Shown: piece after piece, positions 28,412 through 49,419 of the stretch
How positions within the stretch are numbered: position 1 is the first letter of the stretch
How the letters are laid out: the number at the start of each line of letters is the position of its first letter
Assembly (NCBI RefSeq): GCF_020402505.1
Contig: NZ_JADBZL010000023.1
Location: 3,623 to 67,622 of the forward strand
Length of the DNA: 64,000 nt
Source of the DNA: Phenylobacterium sp.
GTDB lineage: Bacteria > Pseudomonadota > Alphaproteobacteria > Caulobacterales > Caulobacteraceae
Direction: 5' to 3'
Made by a program: the position numbers and the translations under genes
The notes under the pieces: model-generated
Seen by the model: the letters and a program-made list of their open reading frames with translations, nothing else
Databases searched by the model: none
What the model was told of the DNA's origin: nothing

Positions 28412-28424
28412 GACGCCTCGGATC

Positions 28425-31676: not shown

Positions 31677-31705
31677 CCTGGAAGCTAAAGGAACCCTCGA
31701 CGGGC

Positions 31706-31729
31706 AAATGATATAACCCTATATCATTT
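31706..31729. promoter_or_regulatory. Operator motif A (perfect palindrome)
   Basis: AAATGATATA-ACCC-TATATCATTT between divergent hapK-like and methyltransferase genes. Confidence 0.85.
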
Positions 31730-31756
31730 GTGCGCGGCAAGCCCCGGAGGTCGATC

Positions 31757-32986: not shown

Positions 32987-33345
32987 GCATCGATCTTGCG
33001 CTGGCCCTGTCGTCCGCAAAGGCGGCGGGCAAACGACCCTACTTCATGGACCGCGAGGTTGAGCGGGTCCTCAACATCCTGATGGCGACGGTCCAGGAAC
33101 TGGCCGTCACGCGCGAAAGGCTGGACACTCTGGAACGGCTGCTAGAGGCCAAGGGCATTGTCGCCCGGTCCGAGATCGAGCGCTTTGAGCCAAACAAGGA
33201 CGAGGCCGCCGAGCGGGGCTTATGGATGCAGGAGTATCTCAACCGCGTGCTGCGCACCCTGCAACAGGAAGCGGAAGCGATGCAGACCACGGACGACCTA
33301 GCCTCGGAAGAGGTTGCGCTTGAAGTGTCCAGGGCCGACGGCTGA
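32983..33345 (+). CDS. Conserved hypothetical coiled-coil protein
   Basis: GKRPYF...ELAVTRERLDTLERLLE, coupled to the methyltransferase stop. Confidence 0.7.
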   Translation: MSIDLALALSSAKAAGKRPYFMDREVERVLNILMATVQELAVTRERLDTLERLLEAKGIVARSEIERFEPNKDEAAERGLWMQEYLNRVLRTLQQEAEAMQTTDDLASEEVALEVSRADG

Positions 33346-34794: not shown

Positions 34795-35088
34795 TCATGG
34801 GGCCTCGACGGCCCATACGCGGCAGTCGGCGACGCCCTGGCGGAGCTTCTTCACTTCTGCGTACTCGGGGCTGTCCCAAAAGGCGCGCAAAGCCGTCATG
34901 TCCGGCCACTCGGAGATGACTGCCGACGATCCGTCGCCCCAGTCACCCTCCAGCAGCCGCACCCCTGGCCCGCGCAGCAGATAGCGCCCGCCGTGCTGTT
35001 CGATCAGGGCCGCGGCTGCCTTGCCGTAGCCACCGAGGAACGCCTCGCGGTCCGCGATTTTTGCCAATACGATCATATATGCCGCCAC
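34795..35088 (-). CDS. DUF1330 family protein
   Basis: AY.IV...Y......HGGRYL.RG.....LEG.W......EWP......FWDSPEY. Confidence 0.82.
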   Translation of the reverse strand: MAAYMIVLAKIADREAFLGGYGKAAAALIEQHGGRYLLRGPGVRLLEGDWGDGSSAVISEWPDMTALRAFWDSPEYAEVKKLRQGVADCRVWAVEAP

Positions 35089-35123
35089 GTCAGCCCCCTT
35101 GCCATATCCACACTAGCGCGCTC

Positions 35124-35147
35124 AAATGGCATAAATCTATATCATTT
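35124..35147. promoter_or_regulatory. Operator motif A
   Basis: AAATGGCATA-AATC-TATATCATTT between divergent genes. Confidence 0.78.
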
Positions 35148-35172
35148 CGCCAACTAACGAGAACCGGGCCTC

Positions 35173-36054
35173 ATGGAACTTCTGCGCGCCGCCACCTTGA
35201 CCGTTGCCGATCCGGAAGCGACGGCGGCTCGTTATGTCGAGTGGCTCGACTATTCGATTGTCGAGCGCGGCCCGGTCTCCGTCGATCTGGCTGCCGCATG
35301 GGGATGTCCGGCGTCAGCGGGCCGCGCGTCGGTAGTCTGCCGTCCGGCATCGGCTGCGGAGGTTTTCCTTCGCTTCATCGAGGGCGCGACGCCTGCTGAC
35401 TTCAAGCCCCTGCGCACCTTCGGTTGGGCGGCCATCGAGATCTGCACTCAGGACACCCACGCCGTAAACGCGCGCATGGAGGGCTCGCCCTTCCAGATCA
35501 TCGGCCCGCCCAAGGAGCTTGACGGGCTGCCCTCCATCTTCCCCATGCAGGTGAAGGGTCCGGATCAGGAAATCGTCTACCTGACCCAGATTCGGGACAA
35601 TCTGCCGGCCTACGACCTGCCCCGTGCTGCAAGTCTGATCGACAAGCTATTCATCATCGTGCTGGCCTGTTCGGACCTTCAGGCTTCGCTGGACTGGTTC
35701 GAGACCGAGCTGAAGCTGTCAGCTGGCCGTTCAATGGACCTGGTCTACACCATGATCAACGCGGCCTTCGACCTGCCCGCGGACACGAAGCACGCCCTCG
35801 CCACCATGATGCACGGGCGCGACTGCTTCCTGGAGCTGGACCAGTATCCGGACGAGACGACCGCCCGCCCGACGGAACCCGGGGCCCTGCCCCCCGGCAT
35901 CGCCATCACCACCTTCCGCCACCCGGACTTCGACGCCCTGAAGGGCTGGATCAGCCCGCCGGTTGTCCGCAACGGCGCCGTCTACGGCGGCAGGCGTGCG
36001 GGTACGCTTCGCGCGCCCGACGGCGCCCTTGTCGAGGTCGTCGAGGCGGCATGA
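35173..36054 (+). CDS. Tandem VOC-fold protein
   Basis: LRAATLTVAD...ARYVEWLDY and C-terminal RAPDGALVEV. Confidence 0.7.
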   Translation: MELLRAATLTVADPEATAARYVEWLDYSIVERGPVSVDLAAAWGCPASAGRASVVCRPASAAEVFLRFIEGATPADFKPLRTFGWAAIEICTQDTHAVNARMEGSPFQIIGPPKELDGLPSIFPMQVKGPDQEIVYLTQIRDNLPAYDLPRAASLIDKLFIIVLACSDLQASLDWFETELKLSAGRSMDLVYTMINAAFDLPADTKHALATMMHGRDCFLELDQYPDETTARPTEPGALPPGIAITTFRHPDFDALKGWISPPVVRNGAVYGGRRAGTLRAPDGALVEVVEAA

Positions 36055-37052
36055 CCAACACCGCTTGCGAAGTCGTCCTGGCCCGCCCTGTCACAGCCGC
36101 CCCGGTCGCCGCAGACTTCACCGTCGTGACTCGCGACCGCCGACAGCCCGAGGGCGAGGGGTGGCTGAAAGTCCGACCGCTGTTCCTGTCTCTCGACCCC
36201 TACATCGGCGCCCGCATCCGGGGTCGTCACATGGGCGAGCCCGCCCCTGCGCCCGGCGAGCCCCTGCCCGGCTTCTGCGTCGCCGAGGTCGAGGAGAGCT
36301 GTGACCCCGCCTTCGCGCCGGGCGACCGCGTCGTCACCGAGGCCGGCTGGACCGACCTTGTCTGGGTCCGATCCGGGACCGCACGCAAAGTCTCATCCGA
36401 TATCGCCGCGTCCCTGCATCTCAGCGTGCTCGGCATGCCTGGCCTGACCGCCTGGGCCGGCATTACCCAGCTGGCGAAGGCCGGCGCTGACGATCTCCTG
36501 ACCGTCAACGCGGCGGCCGGAACGGTCGGCGGAGTCGCTGGCCAGATCACCAGAAACCTCGGCGGCCGCGCCGTCGGCATCGCGAGCGGATCGGAAAAGT
36601 GCGGCCTCGTCGTTGATCGCTATGGCTTCGAGGCCTGCATCGACTACCGTACCGAGGACTGGGAGACACAGCTGGCCTCCGCGGTCGCTCCGGGGTCGAC
36701 CATCCATTTCGAGAACGTCGGCGCGAGCCAACTCGCCGCCGGCATCCGAAACCTCAACCTCTATGGCCGCATCGTCCTGTGCGGGCTGGCCGAGCATTAT
36801 CACGCCGACGCCGGCCCGGCCGTCACCGCCATCGGTCCCCTCCTGGGCAAGCGGGCTGCCGTCTTTGGTCTGGTCGTCTACGACTTCTATCCCCGCTGGG
36901 CGGAGTGGACCGCTCTGGCCGAGCCCTGGGTCAAGGCGGGCCGCCTGACCATCGCCGAGGACATAGGGCAAGGCCTCGACAACGCGGGCGCCCAGCTGGA
37001 ACGGCTTGTCCGCGGCGAGAACGTCGGCAAGACCCTGGTCCGGGTAGCGTGA
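36051..37052 (+). CDS. NADP-dependent oxidoreductase (PTGR/CurA-like MDR ene-reductase)
   Basis: SLDPY, LGMPGLTAW, AAAGTVG, FENVG and GENVGK. Confidence 0.9.
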   Translation: MTNTACEVVLARPVTAAPVAADFTVVTRDRRQPEGEGWLKVRPLFLSLDPYIGARIRGRHMGEPAPAPGEPLPGFCVAEVEESCDPAFAPGDRVVTEAGWTDLVWVRSGTARKVSSDIAASLHLSVLGMPGLTAWAGITQLAKAGADDLLTVNAAAGTVGGVAGQITRNLGGRAVGIASGSEKCGLVVDRYGFEACIDYRTEDWETQLASAVAPGSTIHFENVGASQLAAGIRNLNLYGRIVLCGLAEHYHADAGPAVTAIGPLLGKRAAVFGLVVYDFYPRWAEWTALAEPWVKAGRLTIAEDIGQGLDNAGAQLERLVRGENVGKTLVRVA

Positions 37053-38449
37053 TCCGCCCCGGCGGCGAGCGCGGCTTCGTCACGGTCGACGGCCGTCGCG
37101 TCCTGATCCGTCGTTACGGACGCGGCCCTGCGGTCTTTGTGATCCACGGCTCGCCCCAGTCCTCGCGCGCCGTCGAGGCCGTGTGTCAGACCCTCGCCGC
37201 GCGCGGCCTGACCGCCATAGCCCCGGACACGCCGGGGGCCGGAGCTTCGGATCCCCTGCCCCTTGCAGACCCCGACAGCGCCGACTTCGCCGCCGCCCTG
37301 CACCGCCTGACCGGGACGCTGGGCCTTTCCCGTGTTGGCCTTTACGGCTTTCACACCGGGGCCGCGACCGCCGCAACCTTTGCGGCCCTGTTCCCTCAGA
37401 ACACCGCCGCTCTTGTCTGTGACGGCCTGCCCGCGTGGACCGAAACCGAACGCGCCCGCTTTCTCGCGGACTATCTGACGCCCTTCGAACCGAGGTGGGA
37501 CGGCTCCCACATGGCCTGGCTGTGGGCGCGTATGGAGGCCCAGACCGTCTTCTTCCCCTGGCACTCGACCGCCCCTTCAGAGCGCATGTCGATGGCCGTC
37601 TCCAGCCCGGAGCAAATCCATGCCAACGCTATGGACCTCCTGGCCGCGGGAGATTGCTATCGCCCGGTCTATCGCGCCGCCTTTACGTTCCGGGCCGAGA
37701 CCGTTGTTGCTCGCCTGCCGTCCACCGCCCTCGTCGTATGCGCCGCCTCCGACGTCCTCGCCACCCATCTTGACCGCCCGGCGCTCGCTGGTCGTGGCCT
37801 GATCCTGCCGGACATGCCGAACCTTCACGCCGCCGCCGCCGACCACCTCGCGGCCCATCCTGGTGAGCCGGCTCCCAATCACCTCGAGGGCGGTTTCCTC
37901 GCGCTCGGCGACGAGCGCCTCGCGATCCACCGCCTCTCCGAAGGGCCCGGCTGCCCGCTCGTAATCCTCCACGACGCCGGCGGTTCAGCCGAAGATCTGA
38001 CAGCGCCGACCGACCGCCCCGTCATCGCGCTGGATCTCCCTGGCCACGGACTTTCTGCAGAGGGCTGGCACGGTCCCGTTGACTGGCCCGGGATCGTCCG
38101 CACCGTGCTAAACGCGTTGAACCTCTCTGACGCCGAGGTCTCCGGCGTGGGCGCCGGCTCTGTGCTCGCATCCGCCCTGTCCGGCGCGGCGCCCATGCCC
38201 TGCCGTGTCCTCGGCGTGCCAAATCCCCCGCCGAAGCTGTCGCCCCAATGGGACGGCGCCCACCTGATCCGCGCCTTCCGCATCGCCTCATGGGAGCGGC
38301 TGTTCGACCCTTGGCACCGCCGCGACCCTGCTCATCGCATCCACCGTCCGTCAGACCTCAGCGCCGTCCATGCCCGAGCAGTCAGTCTGCTCCTCGCCCA
38401 ACAGAGATGGTCCGCCCTGGAGACATGGGCGGTTCAAAACGCGCCCTGA
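37049..38449 (+). CDS. Two-domain alpha/beta-hydrolase-fold protein
   Basis: IHGSP, APDTPG.G.S, GFHTGA elbow, and a second module LHDAGG...DLPGHG. GTG start overlaps the upstream TGA. Confidence 0.8.
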   Translation: MIRPGGERGFVTVDGRRVLIRRYGRGPAVFVIHGSPQSSRAVEAVCQTLAARGLTAIAPDTPGAGASDPLPLADPDSADFAAALHRLTGTLGLSRVGLYGFHTGAATAATFAALFPQNTAALVCDGLPAWTETERARFLADYLTPFEPRWDGSHMAWLWARMEAQTVFFPWHSTAPSERMSMAVSSPEQIHANAMDLLAAGDCYRPVYRAAFTFRAETVVARLPSTALVVCAASDVLATHLDRPALAGRGLILPDMPNLHAAAADHLAAHPGEPAPNHLEGGFLALGDERLAIHRLSEGPGCPLVILHDAGGSAEDLTAPTDRPVIALDLPGHGLSAEGWHGPVDWPGIVRTVLNALNLSDAEVSGVGAGSVLASALSGAAPMPCRVLGVPNPPPKLSPQWDGAHLIRAFRIASWERLFDPWHRRDPAHRIHRPSDLSAVHARAVSLLLAQQRWSALETWAVQNAP

Positions 38450-38562: not shown

Positions 38563-39870
38563 TCAGGCCGCCGGATCCGCCGTTTGCCCCGCTGCAGCCA
38601 GGCCTTCCGTCCGATCCCCACCGAAATTGCGGTACCTGCCCATCAAGAGCAGCAGCGCCGCCCCGGCAACCAGCCCCAAAGCCGAGTACAGCAGGATCGT
38701 CTCATAGCTGCCGGTCCGATCGAAGTACTGGCCGAAGATCACCGGCCCGACGCCGGCCCCCAGCGCGAAGAAGCCGTACAGCGCGCCATAGATGCCGCCA
38801 TAGCTCTTCAGCCCGAAGTAGCGCGCCACCATAAAGGCCATCAGATCGAATTCCACACCCGCCGCGAACCCGATCAGTACGATTGACAGGCCCGCGATAA
38901 GCGGGTCGGTTGTTCCGGCAGCCAGGAGCCAACAGGCCACGGCGGGCGCGCTCAGGAATACAAAGGCCACACCCGGCGCCCAGAAGCGGTCGATCAGCCA
39001 GCCGCCCAAGAGCCGACCTCCGATCACCGACAGACCGATAAGCGAGGCGAGCGAAACTATATCCCCGGCTTCGAAGCCATTGGAGCGCAAGATGTTCTCG
39101 ATGTTCGGGATCGGTCCCCCGACCGCGAAGCTGATCGGCACGAAGGCGACCGCCAGAATCCAGAAACGCCAGTCACGCAGAGCCTCCCCGAAGCTCTTTC
39201 CCGGCGTCACGGCCTTGCGCTCCGCATCCGCCGCACGCCGCTCGGCCGCCGTGACGGTCCTGCCGCCCACGTCGTGGAAGAAGATGAAGGCGACCGGGAG
39301 GGCGATCAGAAGCGGCAAGGCCGCCACACCCAGATAGGCGATCCGCCAGCCGAACTCTTCCACCAGCCAGGCCGTGTAGGGCTTGCATGCGAAACCAAAC
39401 AGACCGGTGCCCACCAGCGACAGTCCGAGCGCCAACCCCTTGTGCACCTCGAACCGGTTGTTCACCGCCCGCGTCCAGGTCACCGGCAGGGTGCCCGCGC
39501 CAACTAGCGCCATGACGCCCCAGGTCACGTAGAAGAGCATGATGTCGCCGTTGCTCGCCGCGAACCCCGCGAAGGCCAGGCCGAACAGCAGCAGCGACAA
39601 CAGAGCCACCGTCCGTACGCCGATCCGGTCCGCCAGCAGCCCCACCAGCGGGCTCGCCAACAGCACGGCGAACGTCATGATCGGAAGCCCGCCGAGGATC
39701 TCGGCGAAGCCCCAGCCAAACTCTCTGGCCAGCTCCGGGGCCAGGACGCCAATGGTGTAAAACGGCAGCGGCGACAGACCGAGCCCGATGCCAAGCATGG
39801 CGGACACCACGACGGGCCAGCCCAGCTTGAACTCACCGTATCCGGCCTTCGCCCCAGACTTTTCTTGCAT
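38563..39870 (-). CDS. MFS transporter
   Basis: About 12 hydrophobic helices and the MFS loop motifs GLLADRIG and GWLIDRF. Confidence 0.92.
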   Translation of the reverse strand: MQEKSGAKAGYGEFKLGWPVVVSAMLGIGLGLSPLPFYTIGVLAPELAREFGWGFAEILGGLPIMTFAVLLASPLVGLLADRIGVRTVALLSLLLFGLAFAGFAASNGDIMLFYVTWGVMALVGAGTLPVTWTRAVNNRFEVHKGLALGLSLVGTGLFGFACKPYTAWLVEEFGWRIAYLGVAALPLLIALPVAFIFFHDVGGRTVTAAERRAADAERKAVTPGKSFGEALRDWRFWILAVAFVPISFAVGGPIPNIENILRSNGFEAGDIVSLASLIGLSVIGGRLLGGWLIDRFWAPGVAFVFLSAPAVACWLLAAGTTDPLIAGLSIVLIGFAAGVEFDLMAFMVARYFGLKSYGGIYGALYGFFALGAGVGPVIFGQYFDRTGSYETILLYSALGLVAGAALLLLMGRYRNFGGDRTEGLAAAGQTADPAA

Positions 39871-40029
39871 GCCGGTCCCGTTCAGTGGGTAAAATGTAAA
39901 TCCATTTGCCGATGGATTCCCGACCAATGCAAGAGCCGACCGCCGCGACGCTGTCCGTGATCTTCCCTCGAATTAGTGGACGGGGTTTAGCCGATCGGCG
40001 CTCGGCGTCGGATGGGCTGATATAGTCCA

Positions 40030-40170
40030 TGACCTGCCCCCCTTTCTGATCCGTCGATTTGAGTGAGAGTCTGTCACAGCAAGGAGACGGACGTGAAGAG
40101 GAGCAGGTTCAAGGAGACGCAGTTCATTGGCGCGCTGCGGGAGCAGGAGGCCGGAAGCCCGACCGCGGAA
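40030..40170 (+). mobile_element. IS3-family left-end remnant (same group as 2029-3133)
   Basis: TGACCTGCCCCCC...GATTTGAGTGAGAGTC...GGAGACGGAC, then (V)[25 protein letters not shown], then truncated. Confidence 0.82.
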
Positions 40171-40194
40171 TTGCCTTTGCAAGCCCGCAAGAGC

Positions 40195-40218
40195 AAATGA
40201 TATAGGATTATATCTTTT
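40195..40218. promoter_or_regulatory. Operator motif A
   Basis: AAATGATATA-GGAT-TATATCTTTT upstream of the leuC-like gene. Confidence 0.82.
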
Positions 40219-40250
40219 GCGCGGTCAGCCCGCGCCACTAAGGGGTTCGG

Positions 40251-41561
40251 ATGGCTGGAGCCAAGGCCACAAGGGGTCGCACGCTTGTCGAGAAGATCGC
40301 CGCCAAGGCGTCGGGTCAAAAAGACGCGCGCGCGGGCGATCTGGTGACGGCCGAGGTGGACCTCTGCTTCGCGCATGACAGCTCTGGACCACGCCGCTGG
40401 GCGCCGATGCTGGCGGAGATTGGGCGCGGCCTGTGGGATCCGTCCAAGGTCGTGATCGCGTCGGATCACTACGTGCCTGCGGTTGACGCCGAGAGCGCAG
40501 CTATTTTGAGCCTGACACGCCGGTTCGCTGCCGAACATGCCGTGGGCCGCTTCTACGACATGGAAGGAATCGGCCATATGCTGCTGGCCGAACGGGGACT
40601 GGTGCGGCCTGGCATGCTCGTGGCGGGGGGCGACAGCCATACGCCTATGGCCGGCGCCTTCGGGGCCTATGCCGCCGGCTACGGAGCGACAGATATGGCG
40701 GCGATCGCTGCAACGGGTCGCACCTGGCTGGAAGTGCCCGCGACGATCAGGGTGGAGTGGTCCGGGGCCCTGGCGGACGGGGTGACGGCCAAGGACGTGA
40801 TGCTGTTCCTGTGCCGCGAACTGGGCATGGACAATGCCTTCCGCGCGGTGGAGTTCGCCGGTCCGATGGTCGAGGCCATGTCGATGCCCGAGCGGCTGGT
40901 CTTGACCAATATGGCCGCCGAGCTGGGAGCCGAAACCGGGATCGTGGCGCCGGACGCGACCACCCTTGCCTGGCTGAGGGAGGTCGGAGCGCCGGTCGAG
41001 GATGAGGCGGCGGCGCAGGCCTGGACGTCCGATCCGGACGCGGACTATATCGCTTTACACCGGTTCGACGCGGGCGCCCTCGAACCCATGATCGCCCTGC
41101 CCCACTCCCCCGCCAACAGTGTGTCGGTCGCCAGCGCCGCTGGTCGCCGAATTGACCAAGCCTATGTCGGAGCCTGCGTGGGAGCAAAGCTGGAAGACCT
41201 GCACATGGCCTCGCGGGTGCTGGCGGGCCAAAGGATAGCGCCTGGCGTGCGGTTGCTCGTCGCCCCGGCGTCGTCGCGGGTTACGGAGGCCGCCGCGCGA
41301 GATGGGACCCTGGCCTGTCTGATGGCTGCCGGGGCCACCCTTTTGCCGTCGGGTTGCGGGGCCTGCGCGGGGATGGGCGCGGGCCTGCTGGCCGATGGCG
41401 AGGTTTGCATCTCGACGACCAATCGGAATTTCAAGGGCCGGATGGGCCATGCAGGAGCCGAGGTCTATCTCGGCTCGCCCTATAGTGTGGCGGCGGCGGC
41501 CGTCGCTGGAAGGATCATCGATCCGCGGGGTTACCTCGGTCAACGGAGGGCGGCGGCATGA
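40251..41561 (+). CDS. LeuC/DmdA/HacA-like aconitase-family hydratase large subunit
   Basis: DH.VP, GGDSHT, three cluster Cys (GACVG, GCGAC) and STTNRNFKGRMG. Confidence 0.9.
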   Translation: MAGAKATRGRTLVEKIAAKASGQKDARAGDLVTAEVDLCFAHDSSGPRRWAPMLAEIGRGLWDPSKVVIASDHYVPAVDAESAAILSLTRRFAAEHAVGRFYDMEGIGHMLLAERGLVRPGMLVAGGDSHTPMAGAFGAYAAGYGATDMAAIAATGRTWLEVPATIRVEWSGALADGVTAKDVMLFLCRELGMDNAFRAVEFAGPMVEAMSMPERLVLTNMAAELGAETGIVAPDATTLAWLREVGAPVEDEAAAQAWTSDPDADYIALHRFDAGALEPMIALPHSPANSVSVASAAGRRIDQAYVGACVGAKLEDLHMASRVLAGQRIAPGVRLLVAPASSRVTEAAARDGTLACLMAAGATLLPSGCGACAGMGAGLLADGEVCISTTNRNFKGRMGHAGAEVYLGSPYSVAAAAVAGRIIDPRGYLGQRRAAA

Positions 41562-42070
41562 CCCTACCCGACAGCGGCCGTGCCTTCGTGTTCGGCGACC
41601 AGATCGATACCGACCTCCTGGCGCCAGGCCACCTGATGAAGCTCGATCCAGACGCTCTGGCAAGCCACTGCCTGGAGGCCATCAATCCGACGTTCGCGAG
41701 CAGCGTACGCGCGGGAGACTTCGTCGTGGCCGGGCTGAACTTCGGTCTGGGGTCGTCGCGCGAGCAGGCCGCAGTCTCGCTGAAGCGCCTGGGGGTGCGA
41801 GCCGTCATCGCCCGGTCTTTCGCGCGAATCTTCTGGCGCAATGCCATCAACCTGGGCCTACCTGCGATAACTCTCGCCGCCGCGCACGAGATCATGGCCG
41901 GCGACCGGCTGAGCCTCGATCTGCAGGCGGGCGAACTGATCAATGAGACTTCGGGTCGGGTCTATGCGTTCGCCCCCTTCCCCGACCACCTGACGGCGAT
42001 GATGCGCGATGGAGGGCTGATCGCCCATCTGAAGCGTTCCGCCTCTGAACCCTCGGGAGCCGCATCGTGA
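41558..42070 (+). CDS. LeuD/DmdB-like hydratase small subunit
   Basis: FGDQIDTD, NFGLGSSREQA and SFARIFWRNAINLGL. Confidence 0.9.
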   Translation: MTLPDSGRAFVFGDQIDTDLLAPGHLMKLDPDALASHCLEAINPTFASSVRAGDFVVAGLNFGLGSSREQAAVSLKRLGVRAVIARSFARIFWRNAINLGLPAITLAAAHEIMAGDRLSLDLQAGELINETSGRVYAFAPFPDHLTAMMRDGGLIAHLKRSASEPSGAAS

Positions 42071-42945
42071 GCCTGAAGGCCCGCCTGACAACGCCGGGAC
42101 CGGCGGTCCACGCACCGGGTGCATTCGACGCTCTGTCGGCCCTGCTGATCCAGCAGGCGGGCTTTGAGGCCATCTACTTGTCCGGCGCGTCTATCGCTTA
42201 CACCCAACTTGGACGGCCGGACCTTGGGCTGGTTAGCTTCGACCACGTCGCAGATGTGGTGGCCCGCATCTGCGAGCGGGTGGACATTCCCCTGATCGTC
42301 GATGCCGATACGGGCTTCGGGAACGCCCTGAACGTGGCGCGTACGGTCAAGGTTTTCGAGCGTAACGGGGCCCGCGCCATTCAGCTGGAGGATCAGACGT
42401 TCCCGAAACGCTGCGGACACCTTGCCGGCAAGGGCGTGACCTCGACGAAGGACATGGTCGGCAAGATCCATGCGGCGCTGGATGCCAAGAGATTCGACGA
42501 GACCCTGATCATCGCCCGGACCGACGCCATCGCGGTGGAGGGATTCGAACCCGCACTGGAGAGAGCGGTCGCCTATGCAGAGGCGGGCGCGGACGTTGTC
42601 TTTGTCGAGGCCCCGCGCGACCAGGAGCAGATGAAGTGCATCGTGACGACGCTCGGCCGCACGCCCGCCATGGCCAATATGGTCGAGGGCGGAAAGACGC
42701 CGATACTGACCCGGGACGCCCTGGGAGAGATTGGCTTCAGGCTGGTTATCAGCCCTGGCGCCCTCGTGCGCGCCCTGATCCCTGCGGCGGAGAGCTTCCT
42801 GAGGACGCTCGGGACGGAAGGGTCGACCGTCAGCTACAGGGACAGGATGACGGACCTCGCCGGGGTAAACGCCCGAATCGGCCTGGAGGAGATGTTGGCG
42901 CTCGGCGACCGCTACGAGCGGGAGCGAGAGGAAGCGGCAGAGTGA
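42067..42945 (+). CDS. Isocitrate lyase/PEP mutase family C-C lyase (2,3-dimethylmalate/methylisocitrate lyase-like)
   Basis: DADTGFG, LEDQ.FPKRCGH, IARTDA, FVEA and ANMVEGGKTP. Confidence 0.9.
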   Translation: MSLKARLTTPGPAVHAPGAFDALSALLIQQAGFEAIYLSGASIAYTQLGRPDLGLVSFDHVADVVARICERVDIPLIVDADTGFGNALNVARTVKVFERNGARAIQLEDQTFPKRCGHLAGKGVTSTKDMVGKIHAALDAKRFDETLIIARTDAIAVEGFEPALERAVAYAEAGADVVFVEAPRDQEQMKCIVTTLGRTPAMANMVEGGKTPILTRDALGEIGFRLVISPGALVRALIPAAESFLRTLGTEGSTVSYRDRMTDLAGVNARIGLEEMLALGDRYEREREEAAE

Positions 42946-43892
42946 ACCGCTCCGATCCCAACCTCTACGACCACTGGCCCTATCGCGACCGGCCGAAGAT
43001 CACCTGGCCGGGCGGCAAGGCCCTGGCCTTCTGGATCGCGCCCAACATCGAATTCTACGAGTTCGACCCGCCGGTGAACCCGGCGCGACCCGGCTGGCCG
43101 CGCCCGGCCCCGGATGTGGTTGGCTATTCCCAGAGGGACTGGGGCAATCGGGTCGGGCACTGGCGGCTTCAGGACCTGCTGGACCGGCACGGGCTGAGGG
43201 GGTCCGTATCGCTGTCGATCGGGCTGATCGACCACCACCCCGAGATCATCGAAGCAGCCAACGCGCGGGGCTGGGAGTTCTTCAGCCACGGTATCTACAA
43301 CACCCGCTACTCCTACGGCATGGACGAGGCCCAGGAACGGGCGATTCTGGTCGACTCGATCCGCTCGGTCGAGGCCGCGACGGGCCAGCGCATCCGGGGT
43401 TATCTGGCGCCTGCCCTGACGCACACGGCGCGGACCCTTGATCTGCTCGGCGAGCACGACTTCTGGTATTCCTGCGACTTGTTCCAGGATGACCAGCCCC
43501 AACCACTGAAGACGAGATCCGGGCGGCTGGTCTCCATGCCCTATTCGCTCGAGGTCAACGACGTCATCGGCTACTCGGTGATGGGCTTGGACCCTTGGCG
43601 ATATGCCGACATCCTGAAGCGTCATTTCGACCAGCTGCTGGCCGAGGGGCGCGAGAGCGGAACGGTGATGTGCATACCGCTGCACGCTTATCTGGTCAGC
43701 CAGCCGCATCGTATCCGGGCCTTCGAGAACGCGCTGGAGCACATAATGGACCACCGCGATGATGTCTGGTTCGCGACGGGGTCGGAGATCGCGGCTCACT
43801 ACCTGGAGCACTGCTGGGATCAGACGGTGGCGGACATTCAGCGGCGCGGCCTGGCGACAGGCGGATATGGGTTCGACGATGCCGCTGCCTGA
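42942..43892 (+). CDS. Polysaccharide-deacetylase-fold (PuuE-like) protein
   Basis: WPGGKALAFWIAPNIE, RDWGNRVG.WR, PYSLEVND and PLH..LVSQP.R. Confidence 0.88.
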   Translation: MNRSDPNLYDHWPYRDRPKITWPGGKALAFWIAPNIEFYEFDPPVNPARPGWPRPAPDVVGYSQRDWGNRVGHWRLQDLLDRHGLRGSVSLSIGLIDHHPEIIEAANARGWEFFSHGIYNTRYSYGMDEAQERAILVDSIRSVEAATGQRIRGYLAPALTHTARTLDLLGEHDFWYSCDLFQDDQPQPLKTRSGRLVSMPYSLEVNDVIGYSVMGLDPWRYADILKRHFDQLLAEGRESGTVMCIPLHAYLVSQPHRIRAFENALEHIMDHRDDVWFATGSEIAAHYLEHCWDQTVADIQRRGLATGGYGFDDAAA

Positions 43893-44781
43893 GGAGCATC
43901 TTATCTATCCACACCGGCGACGGGGCATGGACCAGTCGCTCTACGACTGGCGGCCGGCGACGGCGCGGCCCAGGGGGCGCTGGCCCGGCGACCGCGAGAT
44001 GGCGATCATGATTGTGATGCCGGTCGAGTGGCACATGCTTGATCCTTCGGGAAAGCCGTTCAAGCATCCCGGCGCCATGCAGACCGCATGGCCGGACCTC
44101 CGGCACTACACGACAAGAGACTATGGCCCCCGCGTGGGGGGCTTCCGCCTGCTACGGGCGCTGAAGGAGGCGGGGCTGAAGGCGACTGTCCCGGTGAACG
44201 GAATCGCGTTGGAGCGTTACCGGCCGCTGGTCGAGGCGGCGCTGGAGGACGGGCACGAGATCGCAGCTCACGGCTGGTCTACGGATGCGATCCATCATTC
44301 GGGTTTGTCCGAGGGCGAAGAGAGGGCGCTGGTGGCGCGCGCACGCGAAGCCTTCGAGCGCGTGGGCCTGAAGCCCCGCACGTGGATGAGCCCGGCACGG
44401 CAGCAGTCATTCCGCACCCTGTCGCTGATCGCCGAGGCAGGCTTCGACGTCTGCCTGGACTGGGAGCAGGACGAGGTGCCGGTGGTGATGACCACCGACG
44501 CCGGGATGGTTCACGCCGTGCCGTTGATGAACGAGCTTGACGACCGGACGCTGCTGATCGATCGGCGACAGACAGAAGACGCGTGGATCGATCAGGTGCT
44601 GGAGGCGGCGACCTATCTGAAGGCCGACGCCGGAACCGAAGACCGGCGGGTGCTGGGCTTTACCCTGACGAGCTACGTCGCGGGCCAGCCGTTCCGGATG
44701 AGCGCCGTGCGCCGCATGCTCGCGGGTCTGGCGGAAGTTCGGGCGTGGTCTGCGACGGCGAGCGAGATCGCGGCCGCCTGA
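43879..44781 (+). CDS. Polysaccharide-deacetylase-fold (PuuE-like) protein, divergent paralog
   Basis: RDYGPRVG.FR, EIAAHG and NELDD. Confidence 0.82.
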   Translation: MPLPEEHLIYPHRRRGMDQSLYDWRPATARPRGRWPGDREMAIMIVMPVEWHMLDPSGKPFKHPGAMQTAWPDLRHYTTRDYGPRVGGFRLLRALKEAGLKATVPVNGIALERYRPLVEAALEDGHEIAAHGWSTDAIHHSGLSEGEERALVARAREAFERVGLKPRTWMSPARQQSFRTLSLIAEAGFDVCLDWEQDEVPVVMTTDAGMVHAVPLMNELDDRTLLIDRRQTEDAWIDQVLEAATYLKADAGTEDRRVLGFTLTSYVAGQPFRMSAVRRMLAGLAEVRAWSATASEIAAA

Positions 44782-44784
44782 CGC

Positions 44785-45381
44785 CTATTCTCCCACCGGG
44801 AGATCGGTAAGTACCTGATTCAGTTCGACGTAATGACCGTCGGGATCATAAACCGACGAGAAGCTCACGCGGATCACGCTGGTCCCGTCGTAGCCGGGGT
44901 AGGTCACCACATGAGGCGTCTCCCCCACCCGGACGCCCGGCGAGGCGACGGCGCGGGCGAAGACCTCTTCCTGGTTCTCGACGTTGAACACGAGCACGAT
45001 GTCGCCGGGATTCAGCAAGTTGTCGTCCGGGGCGCGCTTGGGCCGGGGCTGGCGTTCAGGCCTAGTGTATTCCATCAGGCCGAGGATGCCGATGTAGTCG
45101 TTGTTGGCGCGCAGGAAGACGAGCCGCAAAGACTGCTCGGCCGACTCGTCGTTCTTGGCGTCTCGCGGCGTACGGATCACGTTGTCATAGATCGGCACGA
45201 GACCGATCGCTCGGTAAAAGGCCAGAGATGCCTCGATGTCGCGCACCACCAGGGTGGTGCGCCGCAGGTCCAGCGGAACACGCTGGTCGGCCGACACCCG
45301 CTCGGGAGCGGGCGCGGCAATTGCACCGGCGCCACAGGCCGAGGTCGCCACGACCAAAGCCAACATCAGGGCGCGGATCAT
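44785..45381 (-). CDS. VOC family protein with signal peptide
   Basis: Hydrophobic N-terminus, RRTTLVVRDIEASLAFY and YDPDGHYVELN. Confidence 0.8.
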   Translation of the reverse strand: MIRALMLALVVATSACGAGAIAAPAPERVSADQRVPLDLRRTTLVVRDIEASLAFYRAIGLVPIYDNVIRTPRDAKNDESAEQSLRLVFLRANNDYIGILGLMEYTRPERQPRPKRAPDDNLLNPGDIVLVFNVENQEEVFARAVASPGVRVGETPHVVTYPGYDGTSVIRVSFSSVYDPDGHYVELNQVLTDLPVGE

Positions 45382-46076
45382 CGGGCGGTCTCCAGGTGGT
45401 TCAGGACATCGGCCGCCGGCAGGACATCGGCGTACTTCAGCAGCAGGTCCGTCAGGTTGGCGTAGTGGTAGCTCTCGTGCTTGTCGGCGACGCATTCGAC
45501 CGGGACGATCGTCCGGTATCCGCGCGACAGGCTTTCCACGGCCGTGGCGCGAACACAGCCCGAGGTCGAGCCACCGGTGACGATCACCGTGTCGATGCGA
45601 TGCCAGATCAGGTAGCTCTGCAGCGGCGTCTCGTGAAATGCCGACGGCATGCGCTTGTCGAAGATCAGGTCGACCTCGCAGTCGGGCCGAGCGCGCGGAT
45701 CAAACGCGTGACGGTCCGAGCCGAACCGGATGTTCTGCAGGCTGTCGGGCGTGTCGCTCCGTGTGCCCCACACGCCCGCGTCACCGCCGTCGGGCTTGTA
45801 ACAGACGCGGGTCCAGACGACCGGCAGACTTGCGGCGCGAGCAGCTTCGCTGATCCGGTTGATCCAGGCTATCTGGTCCGGGTCAGTCACGTAGGCTGTC
45901 TTCGGAAAAAGGTCTGGCCGGGTGTAAGCTTGCTGCACATCGACATTGACAACAGCGGATCGCTGGCCGAAGCCGAAACTCCGGCGCGCCGGGCTCGCCC
46001 GCACTTCCTCATAGATCAGTCTAGCGGGCCGGTCGTCGCGGGTCATCGTGGGTTCGAAACGCAGATCGCCCATCAT
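45378..46076 (-). CDS. Isochorismatase-family amidohydrolase (maleamate amidohydrolase NicF / N-carbamoylsarcosine amidase-like)
   Basis: VDVQ (Asp), DKR.PSAF (Lys), TSGCVRAT (Cys) and H.ANL.D...KYADV. Confidence 0.87.
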   Translation of the reverse strand: MMGDLRFEPTMTRDDRPARLIYEEVRASPARRSFGFGQRSAVVNVDVQQAYTRPDLFPKTAYVTDPDQIAWINRISEAARAASLPVVWTRVCYKPDGGDAGVWGTRSDTPDSLQNIRFGSDRHAFDPRARPDCEVDLIFDKRMPSAFHETPLQSYLIWHRIDTVIVTGGSTSGCVRATAVESLSRGYRTIVPVECVADKHESYHYANLTDLLLKYADVLPAADVLNHLETAR

Positions 46077-46870
46077 TGCGGCTCCCCGGACTGCAGGCGC
46101 CGGATCTCTTGAAGTCCCGTCGGCGGCGCTCGCCAGAGCGGGGCCTCCGTCTCGACGTAGTCGCGCAGCGAGGCGGGCACGTCCTTCCATTGGTCAATGC
46201 GCCAAGTAACCAGGTGCATGATCGCCGGCCCACCGCCTGCCCACGCCGGGGCCTCTCCGTACCGGACCCAGGAAAGCTGGTTCGGATTGGAGGCCCCGCC
46301 CGGCGCCTGGATGAAGAAATCGTAGTTCTCGAAGGCCTGGTAGCGGCGCTCCCCGCGGGTCGGTATGTCCAGAAAGAGCGGCGCGGTGAACACGTAGGCG
46401 TCGCCGATCCGGCGCGCCTGCATCGTATCGCCCGGTCCGATGCGCTGGAGACGCGCGCCTGAGCCTTGTTCCACCATCGTTGTCAGGCGATCACCGACCA
46501 GCTCGTAGGTGATGAACTGATAGGGATAAGCCACCGGTTCGACGGCGACTCCGTTCCTCTCCCGCAGGACCTCGTTCGATTCCGCGTCCCGATAGATGTA
46601 AATCTTGCGCGAGAACTGCCGCGCCAGCGCCCGGCCGGGATCCGGGCGGTCGGACATCGATGTGTCGAAGCCTTCGACCCGCGCAAGCAGATCGCCCGAA
46701 GGATAGGCCCGCAGAGTGCCGACGGAATACCAATAGACCGGCCGCCCCGTCCCGGTGCGAGCATCGACAAACACGTCGAAGCTTTCCCGGTTGAACCCCT
46801 GGCTCTTGGCGTCGTCTCCCAAGCCAGCCAGAGTGGCCGCGATGAATGCAAGCAGGGTCAATCGTCGCAT
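46073..46870 (-). CDS. DUF1838-like secreted protein (second, divergent)
   Basis: Signal peptide, VYWYSVG...LARVEGF and LSWVRYG..P.W. Confidence 0.6.
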   Translation of the reverse strand: MRRLTLLAFIAATLAGLGDDAKSQGFNRESFDVFVDARTGTGRPVYWYSVGTLRAYPSGDLLARVEGFDTSMSDRPDPGRALARQFSRKIYIYRDAESNEVLRERNGVAVEPVAYPYQFITYELVGDRLTTMVEQGSGARLQRIGPGDTMQARRIGDAYVFTAPLFLDIPTRGERRYQAFENYDFFIQAPGGASNPNQLSWVRYGEAPAWAGGGPAIMHLVTWRIDQWKDVPASLRDYVETEAPLWRAPPTGLQEIRRLQSGEPQ

Positions 46871-46920
46871 TTGTGCGCCTCCAATCCGCAATCAGGGTAA
46901 CCCCGCTTGTCGGCGGCTTC

Positions 46921-46944
46921 AAATGATATAAGATTATACCAATA
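46921..46944. promoter_or_regulatory. Operator motif A
   Basis: AAATGATATA-AGAT-TATACCAATA between DUF1838-like gene 2 and TonB receptor 2. Confidence 0.72.
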
Positions 46945-46992
46945 GAACCGGGCTGAGATCCGGGCCCACAACATGAACCCGGAGATCCCTCC

Positions 46993-49308
46993 ATGCGTTT
47001 TTCCGTTTTGCTTCTCTCCACCGCCTCCGCCGCCGCCATGTTTGTCGCACTTCCTGCGGCTGCTCAGGATGGGCCGTCCGACCAGGCCGTCACGCGCGTC
47101 GATGAAATCATCGTCACTGCCCAGCGCCGGGAGCAGAACATCCAGGACGTGCCGATAGCCGTTACGGCCTTCACGGATACGCAGCTGGAAGTCGCGATCG
47201 TAGAGGATACAAGCGATCTCGTGCGAGTGACGCCAAGCCTGACGGGGGGGTTGAACACCGGCACGGGAGGCGCTGTCAGCTACTTCATCCGCGGTCTCGG
47301 ATCGACCGAACAGGTCGCTACCTTCGATGTGCCTGTCGCGACCTATGTCGATGAAGTCTATGTCGCCCGGCAGATCGCCAACAACATCACCCTGCTGGAC
47401 GTGGATCAGATCGAGGTCTTGCGCGGGCCGCAAGGCACATTGTTTGGACGCAACACAACAGGCGGCGCAATTTCCATCACGACGCGCAAGCCCAGTCAGG
47501 ACTTCCGAGCCTCCGTTGAAGGCGCCTTCGGATCATTCGACCGCTATACCTTGCGCGGTGCAATCAGTGGACCGCTGAATGACGCCGTCTCGGCGGGCGC
47601 GACGGTACTCCGAATCGGCGATAACGGTTACTCGCGCAGCCTTGTTACCGGACAGGATCTGAACGGCGAGGACACTTGGGGCGTCCGCGCGGCCTTGCGT
47701 TTCCAGCCGAACGAGACTTGGGACTGGAACCTGTCCGCCGACTACATCGACCAGGCCAAGACCACCATTGGCGTGAACCCGCTGGATCGCCAGTACACGA
47801 GCCGGACGGGATTGAGGCGCGGCGACTGCTCCGACAGCGCGGTGGAGTCGTTCCTGAACCAACGCCTTGGCAACTGTGCCCGCACTCGGGTCACCACCGT
47901 GATTTCGAACCTGACCCACGACATGGACTGGGCCAGTGTCACCTGGATCAGCGGCTACATCTCCACCGATCAGATTTTCTCGGTCGACTTCGGCCTTGGC
48001 GGCAGCCCGACGCCGTTCGGCGGCTTCGTCATTTCCAATGACGTCGAGACGAGGCAATGGACGCAGGAGCTCAAGCTGGTCGGCGAAACCGGCCGCGTCA
48101 ACTGGGTCGCGGGCCTCTTCTACCTTGATGAGGACAACTCGACCTATCAGGTCGACACCTTCGCCACGACGCCGACGGCCACCAGCGCCCTGGTGTTGGG
48201 CGATCGTCTGCTCAATAACGGGACCCGGTCCTTTGCGGCCTACGCCCAGGGCGACTTCGCGATCACGGACCAGCTCACCCTGACGCTTGGGGGGCGTTAC
48301 ACCGATGAAGACAAGGACGTCCGTTTCGGTGATCGGACCCGAGCAACCTATCCGGCCGGCTTCATCGGCTTCACCGGCGCCGCGACCTCACGGCCGACGA
48401 CCGCGAACCTGATTGCGGCCGGAATACCGGTGTCGCAGTCCACCTCGAAGTTCACGCCCCGCGTCGCCCTCGCCTACCAAATGAACGATGACGTGATGTT
48501 CTTTGCTTCGGCGACCAATGGCTTCAAGTCAGGCGGCTGGAACGCGCGCGGCACAACCGCAATCACCAACTCCGCCTTCGGCCCGGAGGAGGCATGGTCG
48601 TACGAACTCGGCATGCGTTCTGACCTTCTTGAGGATACGTTGCGCCTGAACTTGACCCTGTATCGTCTGGAGGTGGAGAACCTGCAGTTGCTTTCGGGTC
48701 AACCTCGCCCCGGCGGCGGGATCGACTTCGTGACCCGTAATGCGGGTGGGCTCGAAGCAACCGGCCTTGAGGCCGAGATCACCTGGCGTCCGACAGAAGC
48801 GCTGGAAGTCTATGCCACCGGCTCAATCGCTGATCGGCAATACGTCGACATCCCGCTGCGTAACGGCGCAGGTGGCGTCCCGTGTTCAACGACGCCAGAG
48901 CCGCTGAACTGTGTGACCACTCGCGACCAGCCGGTCCGTTTCCCGGAGAGTCAGGGCACGCTAGGCGGCCGCTATACCCTGCCCACCACACTGCTCGACG
49001 GCGAGTGGTCGCTGAACGGTTCGATCAGCTACTCTGACGAGTACTGGACTTCGACCTACAACGATGCGCGCACCGTGACCGGTGTGCCGTTTGGCGGAAC
49101 GACAGCCATCACGGCGCCGTTATCCCTGACCGCAGCAACCACGGTCTACAACATCGGCGTGCGCTACGAGAGCAGCGACGGGGCCTGGCAAGCATCGCTG
49201 GACTGCTCGAACTGCGGTGAAGAGTATTACGTCACCACCTCGCTGGTGGGCCTGGCCTATCCGAACGATCCGCGTCGGATCACCTTCCGCCTGCGCCGGA
49301 ATTTCTGA
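46993..49308 (+). CDS. TonB-dependent receptor (second)
   Basis: Signal peptide, DEIIVTAQRREQ, IEVLRGPQGTLFGRNTTGGAI and C-terminal Phe. Confidence 0.96.
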   Translation: MRFSVLLLSTASAAAMFVALPAAAQDGPSDQAVTRVDEIIVTAQRREQNIQDVPIAVTAFTDTQLEVAIVEDTSDLVRVTPSLTGGLNTGTGGAVSYFIRGLGSTEQVATFDVPVATYVDEVYVARQIANNITLLDVDQIEVLRGPQGTLFGRNTTGGAISITTRKPSQDFRASVEGAFGSFDRYTLRGAISGPLNDAVSAGATVLRIGDNGYSRSLVTGQDLNGEDTWGVRAALRFQPNETWDWNLSADYIDQAKTTIGVNPLDRQYTSRTGLRRGDCSDSAVESFLNQRLGNCARTRVTTVISNLTHDMDWASVTWISGYISTDQIFSVDFGLGGSPTPFGGFVISNDVETRQWTQELKLVGETGRVNWVAGLFYLDEDNSTYQVDTFATTPTATSALVLGDRLLNNGTRSFAAYAQGDFAITDQLTLTLGGRYTDEDKDVRFGDRTRATYPAGFIGFTGAATSRPTTANLIAAGIPVSQSTSKFTPRVALAYQMNDDVMFFASATNGFKSGGWNARGTTAITNSAFGPEEAWSYELGMRSDLLEDTLRLNLTLYRLEVENLQLLSGQPRPGGGIDFVTRNAGGLEATGLEAEITWRPTEALEVYATGSIADRQYVDIPLRNGAGGVPCSTTPEPLNCVTTRDQPVRFPESQGTLGGRYTLPTTLLDGEWSLNGSISYSDEYWTSTYNDARTVTGVPFGGTTAITAPLSLTAATTVYNIGVRYESSDGAWQASLDCSNCGEEYYVTTSLVGLAYPNDPRRITFRLRRNF

Positions 49309-49380
49309 CGCCAACAGATTGCGCCGCCGCACGCTTTTGGCTGGCGGCGCCATGGGGGCGGTTCTGAACGCGAACCCTCA

Positions 49381-49419
49381 GAGGGCGCGAGCACATGGCT
49401 CGCGCCCCTCTTCGTTTTT
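49381..49419 (+). terminator. Rho-independent terminator after receptor 2
   Basis: GGGCGCGAGC-ACATG-GCTCGCGCCC stem-loop followed by CTCTTCGTTTTT. Confidence 0.6.

Follow-up and report, generated by a model that had tools for sequence, protein, structure and literature searches.

A conserved, operator-linked hydratase-lyase-hydrolase gene block in Phenylobacterium sp. as a candidate catabolic system for a maleimide-type cyclic imide

RESULTS

Gene content and layout of the block

We analyzed a 64,000-nucleotide stretch of DNA from a Phenylobacterium sp. (assembly GCF_020402505.1, contig NZ_JADBZL010000023.1, positions 3,623 to 67,622 of the forward strand), referred to at its full length as the window, and focused on a block of genes encoding a LeuC/LeuD-like hydratase, a carbon-carbon lyase, and several amide hydrolases. 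The window has a G+C content of about 66% and lies on contig C141 of a genome of 2.87 Mb in 224 contigs; the nearest relatives were Brevundimonas and Phenylobacterium metagenome-assembled genomes, whose LeuC-like protein is 97% identical. About 65 open reading frames (ORFs) of the window were run against Pfam. Each gene named in a first-pass annotation of positions 40251 to 46076 (a LeuCD-like hydratase, a lyase of the isocitrate lyase [ICL] family, and a NicF-like amidase) was recovered in its place with Pfam and NCBIfam profiles. The named genes are thus real, but that list omitted two PuuE-like genes and a gene for an exported VOC protein, and the span holds seven genes rather than three.

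Five genes lie on the plus strand. The first encodes the large subunit of a LeuC/HacA-type hydratase of the aconitase family (40251 to 41561; PF00330, E value = 3.9e-90; NF001614, 505 bits), the second a small subunit of the LeuD/DmdB family (41558 to 42070; TIGR02087, 182 bits versus a cutoff of 109; GSSRE motif), and the third a carbon-carbon lyase of the ICL/PEP-mutase superfamily (42067 to 42945; PF13714, E value = 2e-47; KRCGH motif). They are followed by genes for two PuuE-like hydrolases, A and B, called here PuuA (42942 to 43892; PF01522; TIGR03212, 119 bits; PDB 1Z7A/3CL6, E value = 1e-29) and PuuB (43864 to 44781; PF01522; PDB 3S6O, E value = 5e-18). From 40251 to 44781, neighboring genes overlap by 4, 4, 4, and 29 nt, with the LeuD-like start overlapping the LeuC-like stop by 4 nt and a GTGA overlap joining the lyase stop to the PuuA start. 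Because of these overlaps, we regard the five genes as one translationally coupled operon.

A minus-strand operon (46891 to 44785), joined by two ATGA overlaps, converges on the first. It begins with a gene for an exported DUF1838-like protein (46073 to 46891; weak PF08894 match, E value = 0.0014; signal-like N terminus), continues with an isochorismatase-family cysteine amidase, our half-amidase candidate (45378 to 46076; PF00857, E value = 6e-28), and ends with an exported VOC (glyoxalase/dioxygenase-fold) protein (44785 to 45381; PF00903, E value = 8e-7) that has the signal-like N terminus MIRALMLALVVATSACGAGA. The amidase ATG at 46076, the position at which the first-pass annotation ended, shares an ATGA with the stop codon of the DUF1838-like gene before it, and the VOC gene start shares a second ATGA with the amidase stop. 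Diverging from this operon is the gene for a TonB-dependent outer-membrane receptor (46993 to 49308, plus strand; PF00593 and PF07715). DNA synteny with the closest genomes covers exactly 40160 to 49416 (9.25 kb), from the operator described below through the end of the receptor gene. Scans for consensus promoters and terminators between 39800 and 47100 returned nothing beyond chance.

Conservation and linkage in related loci

A scan of one genome per species yielded 352 stretches with relatives; we studied the best 80, together with 3 loci obtained via protein look-ups (83 loci). The LeuC-like, LeuD-like, and lyase genes (hereafter the trio) were present in 83, 81, and 73 loci, respectively, and occurred together wherever the contig permits, the lyase gene directly following the hydratase genes in at least 73 of the 83. 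The PuuA and PuuB genes were found in 43 to 44 loci, each time adjacent to one another. The amidase gene, found in 33 to 36 loci, never occurred without this pair (33 of 44 loci with the pair, 0 without it). LeuC, LeuD, lyase, amidase, PuuA, and PuuB form a single operon in seven loci from different orders (L023, L026, L049, L050, L056, L073, and L077), and in the Caulobacteraceae five of the six genes share an operon.

Other neighbors recurred as well: a HutC-type GntR regulator (34 loci), a nitrilase-superfamily hydrolase (about 17), an aldehyde dehydrogenase (16 to 18), and an FAD-linked oxidase (10 to 11). Homologues of all four lie in this window at 3382 to 9720, the nitrilase-superfamily C-N hydrolase at 8674 to 9720. 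Receptor orthologues stand beside the module in 14 loci, and the receptor keeps its DUF1838-like neighbor, at 58% identity, in loci as distant as L015 and L016. The Hyphomonadaceae locus L015 holds nearly the entire window set within 21 kb.

Two further gene sets were seen near the module. The first (16058 to 21499, minus strand) encodes an amidase-signature amidase, a PaaK-like ligase, and two MmgE/PrpD-family proteins and lies 19 kb from the module here, without the 26-nt palindrome described below; since Caulobacter endophyticus (L001) and Hyphomonadaceae locus L015 have the same set right beside the LeuC-like module, we treat it as a conserved companion module. The second is a gene for an FAD_binding_2 flavoprotein of about 465 to 480 aa, the size and family of the tricarballylate dehydrogenase TcuA, which follows the PuuE pair in L056 (15238 to 16632), L073 (15236 to 16636), and L002 (916 to 2355); this flavoprotein could supply the hydratase with its maleate-type substrate by oxidizing a saturated tricarboxylate.

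An operator shared by the block and distant operons

A 26-nt palindrome (repeat family D1) with the consensus CAAATGATATA-N4-TATATCATTTG occurs in six copies in the window, all in promoter regions, and shuffled windows gave 0 matches. The copy CAAATGATATAGGATTATATCTTTTG (40194 to 40219) departs from the consensus at one position, and 32 nt separate its end from the LeuC-like ATG. A second copy (46920 to 46945) lies between the minus-strand operon and the TonB-dependent receptor gene, the same place that it occupies in loci L004 to L012. Perfect copies stand ahead of the operon of g7099, FAD-oxidase, and aldehyde-dehydrogenase genes (7761 to 7786) and between HapK-like/SDR genes and a methyltransferase operon (31705 to 31730). 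Copies with three mismatches are located between DUF1330/DUF1838 genes and the operon at 35173 to 38449 (35123 to 35148) and between DUF3598-like genes and an enoyl-CoA hydratase gene (14130 to 14155). A weak copy (30001 to 30026) precedes the operon of a third PuuE paralogue.

In 43 of the 83 related loci, the palindrome precedes the LeuC-like gene by 60 to 100 nt; these 43 include distant lineages and trio-only loci and span many alphaproteobacterial families. The distribution of the operator therefore indicates that the block is the core of a larger co-regulated system, which includes the receptor, two exported DUF1838-type proteins, VOC proteins, the methyltransferase operon, the HapK-like protein, and the third-PuuE operon. 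The obvious candidate to bind the operator is the GntR/HutC-family regulator encoded at 7819 to 8661 (minus strand; PF00392 and PF07702). Its orthologues in the 34 loci mentioned above share 44 to 63% identity, and in about 11 loci they lie directly upstream of the LeuC-like gene.

Behind the perfect copy at 31705, a small partner ORF accompanies the gene for a SAM methyltransferase (31730 to 33345, plus strand). This methyltransferase has a long N-terminal extension, and a homologous gene pair stands behind the same operator in distant lineages with the six-gene operon (L056, 3171 to 4562). One idea is that the methyltransferase could act on trans-isomers of a substituted maleate, by analogy with trans-aconitate methyltransferase. 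Small folds of ligand-binding or cofactor-free-oxygenase type are also found behind operator copies, namely, a HapK/REDY-like protein (31356 to 31676, minus strand; PF11639, E value = 7e-10), a DUF1330 protein (34795 to 35088, minus strand), and two tandem paralogues (13201 to 14171, minus strand), one of which matches DUF3598_N (E value = 7e-5).

The LeuC/LeuD-like hydratase

The first-pass annotation had pointed out that the large subunit carries GACVGAK where LeuC has GSCTNGR and had taken this to suggest a different substrate. The replacement itself was verified (window QAYVGACVGAKLEDL versus QVFIGSCTNGRLEDL in the Methanocaldococcus isopropylmalate isomerase [IPMI], PDB 4KP1/4NQY). Because 80 of 83 orthologues carry GAC[VT]GAK, we read the motif as a marker of the clade and not as proof of altered substrate choice. 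The Fe-S ligand Cys is kept (GACVGAK plus CGAC, three cluster Cys in all), as are the catalytic motifs DSHT, HD, and NRNFKGR (NRNFxGR) in the large subunit and GSSRE in the small subunit.

Both subunits scored below the equivalog cutoffs of 3-isopropylmalate dehydratase (EC 4.2.1.33), the large one against LeuC (TIGR02083, 370.8 versus 610.65; TIGR00170, 215.6 versus 560.25) and the small one against LeuD (TIGR02084, 148.3 versus 245.85; TIGR00171, 43.6 versus 116.25). The large subunit was also below the HacA equivalog cutoff, and only broad subfamily models were reached, including "LeuD/DmdB family" for the small subunit. The nearest solved structures were methanogen HacAB (4KP2/2PKP) and IPMI (4KP1/3VBA), with 353 and 333 bits for the large subunit (353 bits for PDB 4KP1) and 129 and 127 bits for the small one. 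The specificity loop of the LeuD-like subunit reads PG-HLMK-LDP, versus PGPYLRTTDP (YLRT) in HacB and PARYLVYTKP (YLVY) in IPMI/LeuD; its Met-Lys pair is conserved in the orthologues, and homoaconitase has Arg-Thr there. The hydratase resembles HacAB and IPMI in architecture, in its three Cys ligands, and in GSSRE but differs from them in GACVGAK, in a loop that is one residue shorter (HLMK versus YLRT or YLVY), and in its catabolic context.

The lyase

The lyase fell short of the PrpB cutoffs (TIGR02317, 278.6 versus 354.4; NF008455, 248.7 versus 353). Against solved structures it scored 196 bits with PrpB, 178 with petal death protein (PDP), and 165 with the fungal dimethylmalate lyase (DML), and its C-terminal third, which has the motif ANMVEGGKTP, was closest to PDP. 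By sequence, we place the lyase between PrpB and PDP. Across 68 orthologues, PKRCGH, DADTGFG, and EDQ (the catalytic loop and the Mg-binding Asp/Glu) are invariant or nearly so, with the Arg of the KRCGH loop present in 64 sequences and replaced by Lys in 4. The same holds for R235, F179, I228, P230, and ANMVEGG (at least 64 of 68 sequences).

The positions kept across these orthologues include those aligned with PrpB Phe186, Leu234, and Pro236, which we take to be the methyl pocket, and with Arg241 (R235 here), which together with Arg270 presumably holds the distal carboxylate in PrpB. The lyase shares the KRCGH loop with PrpB and PDP (PDB 1MUM, 6T4V, and 1ZLP), conserves the residues aligned with the PrpB methyl pocket and Arg241, and shares ANMVEGGKTP with PDP. 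It departs from PrpB in its score, in Val at the position of Thr212, in Leu or Phe at that of Arg270, and in the absence of prpC beside it.

Could these genes simply be an ordinary LeuCD of leucine biosynthesis and a PrpB of the methylcitrate cycle? The LeuC-like orthologues are publicly annotated as "3-isopropylmalate dehydratase," the best family match of the lyase is prpB, and the sole other PEP-mutase-family gene in the genome is isocitrate lyase. A housekeeping role is nonetheless extremely improbable, and we rejected it on four grounds: the scores against the LeuC, LeuD, and PrpB equivalogs (371 versus 611, 148 versus 246, and 279 versus 354), a second aconitase-family gene of LeuC size on another contig of the same genome (473-aa frame, 602 bits), the clade-wide replacement of GSCTNGR, and the gene context, in which these genes are linked to one another and to amide hydrolases behind a HutC-type operator of the catabolic kind while leuA, leuB, and prpC are lacking. 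The earlier observation that no leuA or leuB is nearby was borne out, as no gene of either type was among the roughly 65 window ORFs run against Pfam. An AcnA-sized aconitase-family gene is present in the genome too.

The amidase and the PuuE-like hydrolases

The best solved match of the amidase was N-carbamoylsarcosine amidase (1NBA, E value = 9e-25), and maleamate amidases ranked second and fifth (4L07/4L08, E value = 2e-23; 3OT4/3UAO, E value = 7e-19). Its Asp-Lys-Cys triad aligns with those of 1NBA and 4L07. With NicF/Ami (3UAO and 4L07/4L08) and 1NBA it shares the isochorismatase fold, the triad, and, as we predict, a C4 half-amide with a carboxylate as its substrate. Unlike NicF, it reaches no NCBIfam equivalog cutoff, its gene is flanked by genes for exported proteins, and no nic cluster accompanies it. 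Since the best solved match is N-carbamoylsarcosine amidase, we use the first-pass label "NicF-like" for resemblance, not membership. ORF profile scans found no equivalents of nicAB, nicC, nicX, nicD, or nicE in the window, and on this basis a nicotinate (nic) pathway was rejected.

The PuuE clade of the deacetylase fold includes true cyclic imidases, among them BpIH, the P. putida YZ-26 imidase, and the fungal HxnM (PMC11424739, PMC9304392), and the catalytic set of the PuuE/BpIH clade consists of a Glu-His-Trp triad and a late His (PMC11424739). PDB 3S6O, the structure matched by PuuB, is a 91%-identical relative of BpIH. PuuA keeps the Glu, the His (SHG), and the late His (PLHAY), with Asn replacing the triad Trp in all 44 orthologues. 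PuuB retains the Glu only; Thr stands in place of its late His, and its first His varies across the 44 orthologues. Both proteins scored below the PuuE equivalog cutoff (TIGR03212, 424.6), with 119.2 bits for PuuA and 72.8 bits for PuuB. From these residues, PuuA and PuuB are probably the catalytic subunit of an imidase and its degenerate partner.

The third PuuE paralogue (29088 to 29972) has the full PuuE/BpIH catalytic set and scored 243.6 bits with TIGR03212. It heads a minus-strand operon (29972 to 23610), preceded by the weak operator copy at 30001 to 30026, that also encodes a GST, a CitE/HpcH-type lyase, a MaoC protein (mesaconyl-CoA hydratase-like), an acyl-CoA dehydrogenase, and two family-III CoA-transferases. 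This operon looks like a CoA-dependent branch for a saturated analogue of the succinimide or alkylsuccinate type.

The same hydrolases could be read as a ureide or hydantoin route, in which the PuuE pair would open a 5-substituted hydantoin or a related ureide, the isochorismatase-family enzyme would be an N-carbamoyl-amino-acid amidase, and the carbon skeleton would be deaminated before the hydratase and lyase act on it. In favor of this route, PuuE as an allantoinase opens a hydantoin ring, 1NBA heads the matches of the amidase, and about 17 loci have the nitrilase-superfamily C-N hydrolase with the module. We nevertheless judge this route improbable: no deaminase, transaminase, or ammonia-lyase by which an amino acid could become a cis-unsaturated diacid is kept alongside the module, and a maleamate-type half-amide would feed a LeuCD-type enzyme without extra steps. 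Moreover, because maleamate and N-carbamoylsarcosine share the same shape, the ranking of the amidase matches does not discriminate between the two.

Glutaryl-CoA dehydrogenase, transporters, and the predicted product

A bona fide glutaryl-CoA dehydrogenase gene (gcdH) is adjacent and divergent (head-to-head) to the LeuC-like gene in about 22 loci, with the operator between the two. These loci come from several families and include Brevundimonas, Caulobacter, Glycocaulis, Oceanicaulis, Roseiterribacter, and Rhodospirillales. The neighbor scored 535 bits with Burkholderia GcdH (3GNC) and 516 bits with the human enzyme (1SIR), the next class of acyl-CoA dehydrogenase following at 223. In Brevundimonas sanguinis, a succinate-glutarate CoA-transferase-like gene follows gcdH (544 bits). 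Because gcdH is found beside the trio whether the PuuE pair is present (13 loci) or absent (10 loci), we tie it to the hydratase-lyase steps.

The gene divergent from the LeuC-like operon in this window encodes an MFS transporter of the monocarboxylate/oxalate-formate family (38563 to 39927, minus strand; PF07690; NF049980 L-lactate MFS, 141 bits). The lineages with the six-gene operon have a TRAP DctPQM system, and both types of transporter carry organic anions. We found the MFS gene at this position in 0 of 83 related loci; in Brevundimonas loci L008 and L012 (and in L007 by tblastn), the place is taken by gcdH. Here, an IS3-family orfA remnant of 35 codons (40093 to 40200, plus strand; 67% identity over 27 aa to the orfA at 2809 to 3105; no Pfam match) separates the MFS gene from the operon and coincides with the left edge of the conserved 9.25-kb block. 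The window also contains an IS3-family element (1988 to 3105, minus strand; orfA at 2809 to 3105 and an integrase-core orfB at 1988 to 2992) and a DDE_3 transposase fragment (15022 to 15540, minus strand), and the island has been rearranged by insertion sequences.

Five features, namely, gcdH, the methyl pocket, the retained Arg, the basic residue of the LeuD-like loop, and the carboxylate-type transporters, lead us to favor a substrate that bears a carboxylate. A maleate with a methyl and a 2-carboxyethyl group, if hydrated at the methyl-bearing carbon and then cleaved, would give pyruvate and glutarate, and the matching imide is hematinic acid.

LeuCD-type maleate hydratases are known, as is NicF, and the module could in principle end a pyridine- or nicotinate-type pathway by passing unsubstituted maleamate to maleate, D-malate, and a final cleavage. 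In Brevundimonas sanguinis, a flavin monooxygenase gene and an Asp/Glu-racemase-type gene of the Amdase family, that of maleate isomerase, lie within 7 kb. We give this route very little credence, since the window lacks nicAB, nicC, nicX, and nicD equivalents and the gcdH neighbor, a conserved methyl pocket and Arg like those of PrpB, and the basic residue in the LeuD-like loop point to a substituted, carboxyl-bearing substrate.

The distribution of gcdH bears on another reading, in which the trio is a self-contained isomerase-lyase route that converts a free tricarboxylate (a homocitrate, homoaconitate, or methylcitrate analogue) to glutarate plus either glyoxylate or pyruvate, and in which the hydrolases (the PuuE pair and the amidase) are co-regulated neighbors with another molecule as their substrate. 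LeuCD-family enzymes are natural isomerases of 2-hydroxy and 3-hydroxy acids, gcdH tracks the trio and not the hydrolases (the 10 loci without the PuuE pair), and the trio lacks hydrolases within 10 kb in about 40% of loci, its sole companions there being the HutC regulator, a YCII protein, or gcdH. We consider this reading unlikely, although not to the same degree as the ureide route: the six genes share a single operon in seven loci of different orders, and five of them do so in the Caulobacteraceae; the same operator governs the trio and the hydrolases; and we know of no natural source of such free tricarboxylates as a growth substrate.

Outside the regions discussed so far, the window encodes an 858-aa protein (55277 to 57853, minus strand) that combines the large- and small-subunit domains of [FeFe]-hydrogenase with several Fe-S domains and carries a SnoaL-like domain at its C terminus. 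Its gene adjoins those for a flavin-dependent aromatic-ring hydroxylase and a TetR protein, and the host is apparently an aerobic alphaproteobacterium.

DISCUSSION

The gene content of the block, its motifs, its operon and regulon structure, and its conservation were read directly from the DNA. On balance, we think it somewhat probable from these features that positions 40160 to 49416 form the core of a catabolic regulon under operator control, with a small maleimide-type cyclic imide as its substrate, which would be converted to pyruvate and probably glutarate. The first-pass annotation had proposed a sequence from imide through half-amide, maleate, and malate to a 2-oxo acid and a carboxylate. 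Gene context, linkage, the shared operator, and the relatives of the amidase speak for this order of steps, but the simple dialkylmaleate that it assumed as the intermediate is now less favored.

Each enzymatic step and the identity of the substrate are what we infer from the genes and their families. The substrate would cross the outer membrane through the TonB-dependent receptor and the inner membrane through the carboxylate-type carrier. From the chemistry of its family, the PuuE-like pair would open the imide ring to a maleamate-type half-amide, and the isochorismatase-family amidase, given its similarity to maleamate amidases, would free ammonia and leave a 2,3-disubstituted maleate. The Fe-S LeuCD-type hydratase would then hydrate the double bond, and the PrpB/PDP-like lyase would split the resulting hydroxy acid, a methyl-homoisocitrate-type compound one carbon longer than the substrate of PrpB, to pyruvate and a carboxylate. 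This carboxylate would most likely be glutarate, which in many relatives could pass on to glutaryl-CoA dehydrogenase. The leading candidate substrate would be hematinic acid, 3-(2-carboxyethyl)-4-methylmaleimide, with simple alkyl-methyl-maleimides as possible co-substrates.

Several observations weigh against this pathway. Neither the PuuE pair nor the amidase lies within 10 kb of the trio in about 40% of loci, and in some of these (Aquidulcibacter and Phycosocius) the trio sits amid housekeeping genes. The amidase gene of the window belongs to a separate, convergent operon, in which it lies between two exported-protein genes, and because its top solved match is N-carbamoylsarcosine amidase, a ureide or hydantoin substrate is possible. 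Imide ring opening is an extrapolation, since PuuA lacks the triad Trp and both paralogues score far below the PuuE cutoff. At the lyase step, Leu or Phe stands at the position of PrpB Arg270 in the orthologues. As for the product, no glutaryl-CoA dehydrogenase is encoded in the window, whose two acyl-CoA dehydrogenases are only 28% identical to gcdH. The hints of bilins in the window (the CpeT-like gene behind a second receptor gene, the DUF3598-like proteins, and the HapK-like protein) are not conserved with the module, and the strongest of them, the CpeT-like gene, is beside it in only 1 of 83 loci.

The closest parallel to the proposed hydratase-lyase steps is the 2,3-dimethylmaleate hydratase DmdAB (EC 4.2.1.85) and the 2,3-dimethylmalate lyase Dml in the nicotinate fermentation of Eubacterium barkeri. 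In both cases a two-subunit LeuCD-type Fe-S hydratase stands beside an ICL/PEP-mutase-family lyase, and the small subunit here matches the NCBIfam model that it shares with DmdB; in both, as we propose, a tetrasubstituted maleate would be hydrated and then cleaved to pyruvate and a carboxylate. The module differs from DmdAB and Dml in that it belongs to aerobic alphaproteobacteria, is coupled to imide and amide hydrolases, has no nicotinate genes, and apparently yields glutarate rather than propionate; its lyase is also nearer to PrpB (196 bits) and PDP (178 bits) than to the fungal DML structure (165 bits).

For the first two steps, the parallels are pathways that combine an imidase with a half-amidase, such as HxnM/HxnN of Aspergillus nidulans (PMC9304392) and that of BpIH (PMC11424739), in which, as proposed here, a PuuE/CE4-fold enzyme opens the imide and a second amidase frees ammonia. 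The module described here departs from them in that its imidase candidate is a pair of paralogues, one of them degenerate, its half-amidase would be of the isochorismatase family, and its product would enter a CoA-independent hydratase-lyase sequence and not central metabolism. Another cyclic-imide pathway with an imidase and a half-amidase is that of Blastobacter sp. A17p-4. In the literature, we found no description of the pathway proposed here, nor of a microbial route that consumes maleimides or hematinic acid. What is new in this work is the operator-defined regulon, the conservation of the operator across genomes, the residue-level comparisons, and the arguments from gcdH and the transporters.

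Hematinic acid is a monopyrrole left by the oxidation of heme, bilins, and chlorophyll, and an origin of the substrate in a pyrrole ring is a plausible hypothesis. In its widest form, which we regard as possible but doubtful, the regulon would be a missing bacterial route that mineralizes the monopyrrole debris of heme, bilins, and chlorophyll to pyruvate, glutarate, and ammonia, taking in hematinic acid and alkyl-methyl-maleimides and, via the third PuuE paralogue and the branch at 23610 to 29972, succinimides. The region from 9888 to 13204 (plus strand) encodes a second TonB-dependent receptor followed by a 322-aa protein with a CpeT/CpcT bilin-lyase domain (PF06206, E value = 3e-14), which is unusual in a heterotroph. 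As support from conservation, the CpeT-like gene was dropped, and we give it weight only within the regulon of this window.

Whatever the substrate, the module would assign a function to a large clade that is now annotated as "3-isopropylmalate dehydratase," as well as to an orphan branch of the isocitrate lyase superfamily and to a conserved PuuE pair made up of a catalytic and a degenerate paralogue. The gcdH-bearing loci show that glutaryl-CoA dehydrogenase can be wired outside lysine or aromatic catabolism. Tetrapyrroles (chlorophyll, heme, and phycobilins) are made and destroyed at a very large scale, and maleimides and hematinic acid are oxidative end products that are well known to chemists and geochemists. 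A conserved gene set that plausibly consumes the debris of tetrapyrroles would offer a testable entry into the gap left by the lack of a described microbial route, and its carriers include the easily grown Brevundimonas and Caulobacter. The block is common to many water and soil bacteria, and these organisms may use it to consume fragments of degraded heme, bilins, or chlorophyll.

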